38,484 nucleotides of DNA. It comes from a virus (Duplodnaviria; Heunggongvirae; Uroviricota; Caudoviricetes). Shown piece by piece: positions 27,001 through 30,000 of this stretch. How positions within the stretch are numbered: the first letter of the stretch is position 1; every line of letters starts with the position of its first letter. Position numbers: made by a program. Location of the stretch: the IMG/VR virus record IMGVR_UViG_2718218100_000014; one strand, 5' to 3'.

Positions 27001-30000
27001 CAAGGAAAATGATAGAAGGAAATAACATTAGTGATGTACGCATGGCGCCTCCCGCTAAGTTCTGCAATGATCAAACAGAACTCGCTACGTGCCCTTAAAA
27101 CTCGATCATTTAGCCCCTCCAAGGAGGATTCACCATGCGGTTGATTTTTTAATAAACAGTAAACAAAAAAGTCAAGAATTATTCATTCTGTTCTTTCATC
27201 ATCGGCCACAGCAATACCACAATGCCGCAGACCAGAGCGCCATCAGTCAGTACCAACATTATCCTGCTGGTGAAATCCATCATCACCATCACTAAAAGCA
27301 GGATCACAACAGCAAGCAGACACAGTTTATAAAACAATGTTCAGGAAACGCATTCAGCATGCCTAAGGTTCTATTCCTACGAATAGCCAACTTGCAACTT
27401 AAAATATTATTTATGCAGCCAATTAAATTCTGGTCCTTACAATATCAACCTGAAGATTCTTATCTTGTGCTGATTGATAAATGACAAACCTTTTACTACC
27501 TGCATTGAAAGAAGTAGACAAAACCAGACAATTATCATAACGAGCAAGAACATAATACCAACCATCATTATAATTAATCATTTCATATTCTTTCTTAAAC
27601 TGTGGTTTGTAATATCCTGTCAGAAATGAAAAAAGCCAGAAATATGCCACAAAAGCAATCATCACAATCTCAAAAAAATGTTTTTTTATAAATGGCTTAT
27701 CATAGAAGCATGATACCGATAAAAATCGCCCATAAGATCTTATCGAAATTGTAACCGCCAGCGCAATCGCTGCTGACAGTAGCAAAAGAGGTACCTGAAT
27801 CTTCTGTCTCAATATAGAAAACTCAATAATTGCCGGCACAAACAATAATTCCACAGCAAAATAAAGGCGAAATACATTTAGCTCTTGCATAGAATGTTTT
27901 CTTTTCACTGCGAAAAAGAATACAACACCAATACCCCAACCGATAAGAAATATAGCAATGACGATAACTGCAAAAAATAAACTTCTGGCAACATCATCAA
28001 CACCTGCACCTACAATCCACCATGGGAAGCCGTAGTAAAAAGAAGTACCCCATCCATAGAAATAAGCACTCCCCCATCCAAGGCATCCCATGTAGGCAAT
28101 AAAAAGTGAAGAACTCCTGAGCAGCGCACCATCCTTCATAACCACCCCAATACAAGATGATAACATTGGCTTACAACTCATAACAAAAGCAATTCAATGC
28201 CGTCAAGAGGTTACAGGCTAAAAAAACTCTATTACATAGCAGCCAGCATGTTTACCGTACAAGTACAACTCAGGGCATAAAAAAACCCACTCGGCAGCGG
28301 GTTTATACATTTTTTACAACATACCAAATTTGCATGAAGTATATGGCTTTTAATCCAGTTTTGCAATATTTTGCTGTAAAAATGCTGCCTTTTGTTTTGA
28401 ACGTGTTCTCGTCACAAGCAATAAAGCATCACTATCAAGCTGTAGAAAAATGTGCTTCATTGCAACCCAGCGTTCAGTAAATGTCTCGGACCAGTTTTTT
28501 GTTGTCACTCCCACCAATGATGCCAGTGTCTGGTATTCATAGGCCTCACGCCCTGCAAGTTCGCTCTTCACATCCTGTGCAGCCAGCCAGATTAACGTCT
28601 TCAGGCGATCCAGTGTCTTACCTGCAATTTTTCTGTTACTTAACAAATCTTTAAACTCGCTCCATGCCCATTGCGTTATGGTGACCTGATGCCCCCATCG
28701 AACGCTTTCGCTGTAACACCAAAGCAACCATGCTTTCTGATGTTCATCGAGAGACAAAACCGCGCGGCGCCATGAAGAGGTTGAGAATTCAACCGGGCTG
28801 ACCAAAGCAATGGATGAACCTTTTGCGTACGACTGCTTACCGGAAGTCGGCGTATTATCCAGCGTAATCATCTTGCCAGTTACCACATCCAGAATGCGCG
28901 GCTTCTTTCGTTTGTATGTACCAGTATCAAATTGTGCATGCTCCTGCCAGGCTTCGAGCTGGCCTTTCGTTGCTCCGTTCAAGTCAGCAGTAGCTGCCAT
29001 AAGTTGCTCACGAACATACTGTAAATATTGGGTATTCATGCAGTAAATCCTTTCTATATTTTGGCATAATTCTTCAACATTCGGTAATCGTTCAAAACCG
29101 AATCGGGGAAACGACATAAGCACAGGAGCCCCCAGCGACAGCGAAGGAGTTCTGATATATAAGACTCAGACATCATTCATTCCCCGGTTCTCCAATATCT
29201 GTTTCACTCATCATCCATAACTACCTGTAATTGCCCCCCCTTTTTTTGTAACAGTTCTTATATTGCTATATAGAATAGCCATTACTAATGCATTTAAATT
29301 TAATAAAATAAAATTATAAAAAACATAAAACACCACGCAAACACACTTAATAAAAACACCGTTACATTAAAAGATAATAAAAACCGCAATAAAAAACGAA
29401 TAAATCAATTGTCTCACGCAATTATAAAACATCATATTGATTACGCACCTTGCATTACAAACTCATGTATGTAAAATACGCGCACCATTCAAAAAAAAGG
29501 AAGACAATAACATATGAAAAAAAGTGTCATCGCTGGCGTCTTTATTGCTCTGTCATTTACCACGTGTTCAGCTATCGCGAACAGCCTTGCATTATCATTA
29601 GCAAATGATGATGCAGGGAAGTTTCAACCAATACTTAATGATATTTATGGCAATAAACATGAAAACAGAGATGATTACTCACAAGGCTTATTTCTGGGAT
29701 ATAGCCACGATATCTCAGACTCGAGCCAATTATCTCTCCATATTGCGCAAGATATTTACTCTCCATCAGGCAGTAATAAAAGACACAACACAGCTGTAAC
29801 TGGAGACAGAGCTTTTAGTGCATACACTCACACTGGTATTGAATGGAACTCCCTTGCGAATGACTGGATTCGCTATCGATTAGGTACTGACATAGGTGTT
29901 GTTGGCCCCGACGCAGGCGGTCAGAAAGTACAAAATAAAGCTCATGAGATTATTGGGGCAGAAAAATATCATGCATGGGATGATCAAATAGAGAATCGCT

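Follow-up and report, generated by a model that had tools for sequence, protein, structure and literature searches.

A gene of the PF27470 (TfpB) family is an AT-rich moron in the stx-equivalent slot of a lambdoid prophage

The DNA analysed here (the window) is the whole 38,484-nucleotide (nt) stretch of IMG/VR virus record IMGVR_UViG_2718218100_000014 (Caudoviricetes). It was 100% identical to a prophage of Escherichia coli O157:H7, Sp3 of strain Sakai (CP-933K), and its region was present in ~14% of complete E. coli genomes, usually at several places per genome. On the minus strand, between the gene for the late antiterminator Q and the lysis genes, an open reading frame (ORF) of 252 codons beginning with ATG was called at 27423..28181. 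In Sakai this gene is ECs0816, annotated ‘membrane protein’ (Q is ECs0815 and lpxR is ECs0814), and its product was 100% identical to gp68 of phage 434. As described below, it belongs to the Pfam family PF27470 (TfpB). This cargo gene and the features around it were as follows.

27423..28139, minus strand: TfpB-family (PF27470) gene, ECs0816 / 434 gp68, for a predicted inner-membrane protein; conserved start at methionine 15 of the ORF (M15), 238 amino acids (aa), stop codon at 27423–27425.
28142..28148, minus strand: Shine-Dalgarno-like GGGGTGG, 2–9 nt upstream of the M15 ATG.
28140..28181, minus strand: in-frame 5′ extension of the ORF, with ATGs at 28181 and 28166; its codons are kept in no homologue, and it overlaps the promoter and leader.
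28157..28206, minus strand: candidate sigma-70-like promoter region of the gene itself, two overlapping candidates found by scan.
28283..28304, minus strand: candidate intrinsic terminator tR′, AAACCCGCTGCCGAGTGGGTTT followed by a T-run, found by scan; a terminator is annotated here in the phage 434 record too.
28338..28366, minus strand: candidate late promoter pR′, TTGCAA-17-TATACT, found by consensus scan and overlapping the 3′ end of Q.
28350..29123, minus strand: Q82-type late antiterminator gene (ECs0815), the upstream edge of the slot (PF06323, E 1.7e-91; phrog_304; RefSeq).
27179..27337, minus strand: gene for a DUF3927/TciB-like membrane protein of 52 aa, directly downstream and co-oriented (PF13064, E 3e-14; phrog_1470).
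26933..27043, minus strand: small hydrophobic ORF of 36 aa, MRTSLMLFPSIIFLVSSGC..., 89% identical over 28 residues to the C-terminal part of 434 gp70, a ‘putative membrane protein’.
26974..26992, minus strand: predicted strong intrinsic terminator closing the cargo unit, with an 8-bp stem (7 GC pairs) and T8; 434 has an annotated terminator at the same place.
26855..26879, minus strand: remnant of a NanS-p gene (SASA 9-O-acetyl-sialic acid esterase type), first ~25 nt only; a 97.7% match to 434 stops there.
26342..26602, minus strand: P21-type class II holin gene, the downstream edge of the slot (PF04971, E 2e-32).
29514..30473, plus strand: LpxR lipid A 3′-O-deacylase gene (ECs0814), a moron divergent from Q (PF09982, E 7e-40; G+C at third codon positions, GC3, 0.303).

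The earlier note on this DNA, made from the sequence alone, had placed the gene at 27423–28181. The ORF proved real, with more than 100 homologues and a ratio of nonsynonymous to synonymous substitution (dN/dS) of 0.055–0.20, and only the start had to be moved. M15 (MKDGALL; A of the ATG at 28139) lies 14 codons into the ORF and is the start in all full-length homologues. Because homologues begin there, the Shine-Dalgarno-like sequence is kept and the upstream ATGs lie inside the promoter and leader, the true start is probably M15 and the protein most likely has 238 aa. The start in RefSeq (ATG at 28166) and that of the earlier note (28181) both fall within the conserved promoter/leader, and the extension was probably not translated.

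The two promoter candidates upstream of M15 were TTGACG (28206–28201), 17 nt and TTATGA (28183–28178), and TTGTTA (28186–28181), 18 nt and TATCAT (28162–28157) with a TG extension. The element CTTGAC(G)-17-TTATG, ~60 nt upstream of M15, was kept in the copies from E. albertii, the iroBC island, plasmids of enterotoxigenic E. coli (ETEC) encoding heat-labile enterotoxin (LT), and Citrobacter rodentium, and the DNA further upstream was unrelated. A GAGG/GGGG block 7–9 nt upstream of M15 was conserved in seven of seven aligned genomic contexts. The idea that the gene carries a long stretch of conserved upstream DNA along with it was rejected, as only ~90 nt were shared. On the other side of the gene, the terminator at 26992..26974 came after TciB and the small hydrophobic ORF. 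Read from the sequence, the gene would thus have its own promoter, ribosome-binding site and downstream terminator, which is the layout of a moron.

The family assignment was reached by several routes. A precomputed PF27470 tag was carried by 103/103 database homologues, including the 100%-identical cluster P0001, and PF27470 is named ‘TfpB’ in gene-neighbourhood annotation, in which an unmarked hit stands for E ≤ 1e-5. The gene tfpB is an ORF of the Moraxella bovis pilin inversion region, and this served as a lead that was then tested. Among 1.84 billion representative proteins, a profile built from the phage-type proteins matched only 72, distant full-length ones included, and the distant matches came from Neisseria, Actinobacillus, Gallibacterium, Avibacterium and Pasteurella. 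The same profile found protein P0131 at E 1.8e-19, and P0131 was 63–65% identical to M. bovis TfpB. When one genome per species was scanned, relatives with 27–29% identity turned up in three Moraxella species, M. bovis, M. lacunata and M. equi; by tblastn the full-length M. bovis copy gave E 1e-19 over residues 9–236, and the truncated M. lacunata and M. equi copies gave E ~1e-16. The JGI name of the Moraxella protein is ‘protein tfpB’, with the PF27470 tag, and one Shigella plasmid record annotates a ‘TfpB protein’. Besides being alike near full length (238 aa in the window, 261 aa in Moraxella), the two proteins shared the AYxYGWG...YGYPWW motif, the pattern of hydrophobic segments and a C-terminal YY(I/V)L...IL beta region. 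Columns A25, Y26, W30, W40, A51, G175, Y195 and F218 were invariant across Enterobacteriaceae, Pasteurellaceae, Neisseriaceae and the Moraxella-type P0131. The cargo protein is a member of the PF27470 TfpB family. The earlier note had not recognised the family, which is identifiable from the database tags, the profile searches and the Moraxella loci.

Searches of a local Pfam-A copy without PF27470, of NCBIfam, of PADLOC and of PDB sequences, by sequence and by profile, returned nothing for the cargo protein, and among PHROGs it matched phrog_1521, of ‘unknown function’, whose members are only phage and prophage proteins. A motor protein called TfpB in Acinetobacter was considered and set aside, being unrelated and sharing only the name. 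No paper was found that links ECs0816/434 gp68, STM1630 of Salmonella, the ORFs of the invasion plasmid pINV and of LT plasmids, and Moraxella TfpB; the Pfam family links them implicitly. The literature search found no mention of ECs0816 or of PF27470, and the supplement of a Sakai array held no probe for ECs0816.

A first AlphaFold (AF2) model, for which the enterobacterial alignment was shallow, was unusable, with a predicted local distance difference test score (pLDDT) of 58. The final model, from a 55-sequence alignment with distant members, reached pLDDT 78 and a predicted template-modelling score of 0.71. It predicted helices at residues 3–36, 47–79, 88–111, 116–137 and 155–181, two short helices between, and five beta-strands within 184–235; that is, five membrane helices and a ~55-residue SH3-like beta-barrel. 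Hydropathy showed four strong hydrophobic cores (~53–78, 92–110, 114–136 and 157–178), residues 11–46 formed an uncharged segment rich in aromatics and glycine, and the C-terminal tail of ~55 aa was hydrophilic and beta-rich. Hydropathy and model both agreed with the earlier description of a polytopic membrane protein with a hydrophilic C-terminal domain. Because the loops at 79–91 and 134–156 are K/R-rich, whereas those at 41–52 and 111–116 are acidic or short, the positive-inside rule suggests an N-in, C-out topology, in which the beta-domain would be periplasmic. The first helix carried the family signature AYxYGWGxSxYYGxPWW...ARSL, and on one helix face small residues (21, 25, 29) lay beside aromatics (22, 26, 30). 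A fold search of BFVD gave nothing significant (best E 0.06 over 66 columns). The only theme that recurred in the Foldseek search of PDB was a likeness of the C-terminal domain to small SH3-like barrels (the C-terminal domains of integrase and of KorB). Neither the profile nor the structure searches revealed homology to housekeeping or structural proteins.

An AT-rich gene unlike the phage backbone, in the position equivalent to stx, had been described in the earlier note, and both observations were upheld. The cargo gene had a G+C content of 0.363 and a GC3 of 0.305, compared with 0.498 G+C for the window and a GC3 of 0.49–0.55 for the lysis and terminase genes; over its 3′ two-thirds the G+C content formed a trough of 0.29–0.37, compared with 0.50–0.56 in the terminase and lysis region. 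The order in Sp3 was Q, ECs0816, TciB, NanS-p remnant, S, R and Rz, with lysozyme and Rz detected after the holin on the minus strand by Pfam scan. In the Stx2 prophage Sp5 of the same strain it was Q, three tRNAs, stx2A, stx2B, ECs1207 (NanS-p esterase), small ORFs, S, R, Rz and Bor. The cargo gene therefore lay exactly where Sp5 carries stx2AB relative to Q, pR′, tR′, NanS-p and the lysis genes. Its product is unrelated to Stx, and no tRNA was found in the window, unlike Stx phages, which have tRNAs in the slot.

Phage 434 had the order Q, terminator, gp68, TciB, small membrane protein, NanS-p-type esterase and pinholin; its NanS-p gene of ~1.8 kb was, apart from the remnant, deleted at the same point of the window prophage. 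In another lambdoid prophage type, carrying a 68%-identical relative, the order was Q, methylase, TfpB-like gene, LpxR (with PmrD), NanS-p, DUF1378, DUF826 and holin, and in phage JLK-2012 the slot was filled by tRNAs and tciA-tciB. Thus the Q-to-holin slot holds a TfpB-family gene in Sp3, 434 and 2B8, its position is equivalent to that of stx, and the slot varies between prophages; the cargo gene is an AT-rich moron of foreign composition in this variable slot. Two ideas about the slot were discarded: TciB/DUF3927 as an obligate partner, because it accompanies only copies at least 97% identical, and LT-II enterotoxins as occupants of the Q-to-S slot, because the paper puts them 3′ of the phage lysozyme gene.

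The tR′ candidate sits between the pR′ candidate and the cargo gene, and the position of pR′ relative to Q and the terminator fits lambdoid late regions. From lambda and Stx-phage biology, Q-dependent read-through into the slot is expected on induction. The pR′/tR′ pair would also yield a terminated leader transcript of ~55 nt (~28276–28331, minus strand). Lambda 6S RNA and the StxS small RNA reported for Stx phages would be counterparts of such a leader; no Rfam family matched it, and the Rfam scan of the late region found no known RNA.

A place in the late operon upstream of the holin-endolysin-spanin cassette, a membrane-protein product, and a PHROG confined to phage and prophage proteins are what might be seen if the product were a Q-dependent late protein that tunes lysis timing, envelope disruption or virion release. 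In phage 434B, however, according to the 434 record annotation and the paper, the whole segment is replaced by DLP12 DNA, and 434B is a viable, clear-plaque phage. Because 434B forms plaques without the segment, the cargo gene is dispensable for lytic growth. Many lambdoid phages have other cargo or none in the slot, most relatives lie in non-phage contexts without lysis genes, STM1630 has a mapped promoter of its own, and a conserved promoter-like element precedes the window copy. Such a lytic-cycle accessory role is therefore considered highly improbable.

The relatives were found only in animal-associated Enterobacteriaceae, Pasteurellaceae, Neisseriaceae and Moraxella. Their neighbours repeatedly included virulence or surface loci. 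The Salmonella member adjoined the effector gene sseJ, and the C. rodentium member a split LpxR. In ETEC plasmids (>900 contigs; L040–L043, 2987–5714) a unit bounded by insertion sequences (IS) consisted of eltB-eltA and a divergent TfpB-family gene only, 867 bp apart; the protein was 59% identical to the cargo protein, and estB lay a few kb off. The member from extraintestinal pathogenic E. coli was next to iroB/iroC and bor/iss. On Shigella pINV (pWR100 included) the gene was found among IS elements, and 106 of the 156 plasmids with the family were from Shigella. In Glaesserella parasuis (L016:5955–8017) the member abutted cdtC-cdtB-cdtA, with CdtA and CdtC identified by Pfam match and cdtB, which had no Pfam match, recognised by eye. 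A member in a Mesocricetibacter metagenome-assembled genome (L014:5888–9454) abutted an exporter pair of RTX (repeats-in-toxin) type, HlyD and C39-ABC, and those of Actinobacillus and Aggregatibacter stood beside polysaccharide (capsule- or O-antigen-type) biosynthesis genes. LpxR was found beside diverged family members in three arrangements, and the two have diverged in parallel, LpxR showing ~70–75% identity where the TfpB-like protein showed 66–68%.

A TfpB-like gene, LpxR and a PmrD homologue shared the slot of one E. coli prophage (L048:7187–7504, minus strand). As PmrD connects PhoPQ with the lipid A modification controlled by PmrAB, the family member there has two lipid A-related genes next to it. 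The most divergent enterobacterial member, with 39% identity, was on Rep3-type plasmid-like E. coli contigs (L006–L008), downstream of a transposase of the IS110 family (DEDD). This is the recombinase family usually cited for Moraxella Piv, a parallel that may be coincidence.

In Moraxella, tfpB is chromosomal and lies in an invertible pilin segment next to the Piv recombinase, whereas the window gene is phage cargo with no pilin nearby. The M. bovis copy (L026) was flanked, on its 1.9-kb contig, by two inverted pilin 3′ segments (18–305, plus; tfpB 491–1276, plus; 1593–1883, minus). It was co-oriented with, and 186 nt downstream of, just one of the two alternative segments, and inversion should place it downstream of the expressed pilin in one phase only. 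The M. lacunata copy (L029, 4974–5561), truncated to 195 aa, had a partial type IV pilin gene on one side and a complete one on the other and adjoined a 328-aa ORF, taken as the Piv recombinase by an assignment made without a library scan. In the chromosomal view, pilin genes were all around Moraxella tfpB.

This setting of the founding member raises the idea of a type IV pilus or type II secretion accessory, whose helices would bind the N-terminal helix of pilin or pseudopilin and whose barrel would contact the assembly platform, thereby modulating piliation or secretion. The size and general plan of the protein recall TfpX, TfpY, TfpZ and FimB (Pseudomonas, Dichelobacter, Acinetobacter, Neisseria), pilin-adjacent proteins of ~235–245 aa, with functions partly understood, that have a short cytoplasmic N-terminus, membrane helices and a periplasmic C-terminal domain; pilin adjacency is shared by Moraxella TfpB. 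The ETEC plasmid copy travels with LT, LT is exported by a type II system, and every host taxon has type IV pili or a type II system. On the other hand, the published description sets the TfpY-like proteins apart, with three helices and a much larger mixed alpha/beta domain instead of five helices and a 55-aa barrel. M. lacunata is piliated despite the truncation of its copy. No pilin gene was found in the window or beside any enterobacterial member examined, nor beside the Avibacterium one, so most members have no pilin neighbour, and this weakens the transfer of a pilus-related function to the phage protein. We consider the accessory role unlikely.

The same neighbourhoods allow a broader and more doubtful idea, that TfpB proteins are mobile inner-membrane helpers of co-travelling virulence cargo, acting for example in the export, release or surface presentation of LT, cytolethal distending toxin (CDT), RTX toxin, pilin or LpxR-modified lipopolysaccharide, with type II secretion, type IV pilus-like machinery or the formation of outer-membrane vesicles as possible routes. 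On that view the cargo gene would not stand alone as a moron; it would be one of the two halves of an ancestral ‘toxin plus helper’ module. We give this little credence.

Experimental data were available for one family member, the orthologous gene STM1630 of Salmonella Typhimurium, which lies between steB and sseJ. Its identity is proved by a published deletion primer, which encodes NSSMLLAYLGGLGWG, and by the presence of the 717-bp gene beside sseJ. The protein has 238 aa and the same start, and was 46% identical to the cargo protein. It was syntenic and 89–93% identical across the subspecies enterica, diarizonae and arizonae. Canals et al. (2019, S1 Text, PMC6785131) describe it as a gene of unknown function that S. 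Typhi lacks. STM1630 is bound by H-NS, has a mapped promoter of its own, and is expressed in medium inducing Salmonella pathogenicity island 2 (SPI-2) and in macrophages; two single-nucleotide polymorphisms in the -10 element silence it in all strains of sequence type 313 (ST313) tested (PMC6785131). Signature-tagged mutants were attenuated in calves and chickens (Morgan 2004, as reported in PMC6785131), and the gene belongs to a set dependent on virulence regulators needed for systemic infection (PMC2639726). Like the window gene, STM1630 is AT-rich and horizontally acquired and has an upstream promoter of its own, which for the window gene is suggested by sequence. It differs in being fixed in the chromosome, vertically inherited and outside any prophage, and the DNA upstream of it is unrelated to that of the phage copy.

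For the cargo gene, dN/dS was 0.055–0.09 against copies 94–97% identical, ~0.12–0.15 against copies 58–68% identical, and ~0.2 against the 98%-identical copy of 2B8, a comparison with few substitutions. Given this range of 0.055–0.20, the gene is under purifying selection. This largely refutes the notion of a decaying or hitch-hiking ORF, functionless and kept by residence in mobile AT-rich DNA, which we regard as most improbable. Many database entries are indeed truncated or frameshifted (e.g. P0076 and P0103), like the M. lacunata copy, the STM1630 promoter is inactivated in ST313, and the LpxR neighbour in C. rodentium is split. Nevertheless, length, motifs and architecture are kept from Moraxella to E. 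coli at 27% identity, the O157 Sp3 and 434 proteins are 100% identical, and the gene is retained across Salmonella subspecies.

Superinfection exclusion, abortive infection or another defence function had also been proposed in the earlier note, and found no positive support. The periplasmic domain would block DNA entry or abort infection by a competing phage, like P22 SieA, HK97 gp15 and T4 Imm, which are small-to-medium inner-membrane exclusion proteins of phages or prophages expressed from the lysogen. The cargo protein is likewise prophage-encoded and predicted to be in the inner membrane, and a moron product with a periplasm-facing domain is a common format for such proteins. The conserved promoter element, the several copies per O157 genome and the mobility among phages, plasmids and islands are also compatible with exclusion. 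The Moraxella copy is inside a type IV pilin locus, pilin being a typical phage receptor, and the JLK-2012 slot holds tciA/tciB, with a PHROG label that refers to colicin resistance and the inhibition of cell division. Against this, the cargo protein resembled nothing in PADLOC, PDB or BFVD by sequence, profile or fold, and in PADLOC-DB the cargo protein and its neighbours matched 0 families at E ≤ 0.1. In Salmonella the gene has been inherited stably at a single site throughout the species, under regulation like that of a virulence gene, and several Pasteurellaceae and Neisseriaceae copies lie between housekeeping genes and not in defence islands. We know of no exclusion phenotype mapped to the 434 late region. 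An exclusion function appears unlikely, if less so than the pilus-related one.

The reading that we favour, with moderate confidence, is that the cargo protein is an envelope protein expressed in the lysogen that helps the bacterium in the animal host. It draws on the STM1630 data, the confinement of the family to animal-associated bacteria and the recurrent adjacency to virulence and surface loci. In the lysogen the gene’s own promoter would drive production of the protein; as with STM1630, H-NS probably silences the gene until host-like conditions lift the repression. After induction, Q-modified RNA polymerase would read through tR′ and transcribe the cargo gene heavily. The periplasmic barrel and the glycine/aromatic helix may act on some component of the envelope and thereby favour the bacterium within its animal host. 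The outcome would be lysogenic conversion, of the class of bor, lom and lpxR, rather than a role in the phage cycle or against other phages. Genes bor/iss and lom are envelope morons of lambdoid late regions, of foreign composition, with expression signals of their own and dispensable for the phage, that benefit the lysogen in animals. In enterohaemorrhagic E. coli lpxR is a member of the Ler/Pch regulon and dampens innate immunity. The cargo gene is also late-region cargo of foreign composition; lpxR shares its GC3 and recurs as its neighbour, and Bor/Iss is found near family members. These known products, however, are outer-membrane proteins or lipoproteins with defined activities, whereas the cargo protein is predicted to be in the inner membrane. 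The virulence role suggested in the earlier note has thus gained indirect support, from the expression of STM1630 under SPI-2 conditions and in macrophages, its attenuated mutants, and the adjacency to toxin, effector and surface-antigen loci.

Several points weigh against this host-adaptation reading. Deletion of STM1630 in strain 4/74 raised, and did not lower, intramacrophage replication, and growth in lysogeny broth (LB) was normal (PMC6785131). The phenotypes of STM1630 are modest, and the protein is only 46% identical to the cargo protein. Co-residence in AT-rich mobile DNA could by itself be a sufficient explanation for the adjacency to virulence genes, and several Pasteurellaceae and Neisseriaceae members are flanked by housekeeping genes. 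Lying downstream of pR′, the cargo gene is bound to be strongly expressed late, and such timing would fit a function in the lytic cycle as well. The promoter of the cargo gene itself is deduced from sequence conservation. The family alignments held no invariant acidic, histidine or cysteine residues of catalytic type that would give a mechanistic handle, and the Foldseek search of PDB gave no informative fold match (best E ~1, not significant).

Other observations concerned the prophage as a whole. A 72-nt remnant of a lambda-type Q was found after NinI at 30617–30688 (minus strand), and a YlcG-like ORF at 29054–29176 (minus strand); LpxR is located between the remnant and the YlcG-like ORF with the intact Q82-type Q. 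The block of LpxR, YlcG, Q82, TfpB-like gene and TciB looks like one recombinational replacement. RefSeq also has a 132-aa ‘hypothetical protein’, ECs0817 (26700–27098, plus strand), on the strand opposite the small hydrophobic ORF, the terminator and the NanS-p remnant; it is unlikely to be a genuine gene. An ALIL pseudoknot (Rfam RF01497, 121 bits) was detected at 37023–37139 (minus strand), overlapping a 296-aa ORF at 36207–37097 (minus strand). RF01497 is the frameshift signal of IS3-family transposases, which indicates an IS3-family insertion in the early region. The bet gene (32363–33010, plus strand) is annotated as truncated, with its N-terminus missing, in the identical O157 prophage, and the portal gene is a pseudogene in the Sakai copy. 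The window prophage is probably defective.

Whichever reading is right, the advance is incremental, concerning a catalogued but uncharacterised family and a textbook moron. The gene is present in phage 434, a founding phage of molecular biology, and tfpB was first noted in Moraxella ~35 years ago. The family view joins scattered observations, among them the attenuation of STM1630 mutants and the loss of its promoter in invasive ST313. Uniting ECs0816, 434 gp68, STM1630, the ORFs of pINV and LT plasmids and Moraxella TfpB offers a tractable entry to the family, a dispensable gene in a genetically easy phage. If the protein were an exclusion protein, it would be a widespread new one; if it is an envelope factor for survival in the host, it would add an inner-membrane class of lysogenic conversion to bor, lom and lpxR.

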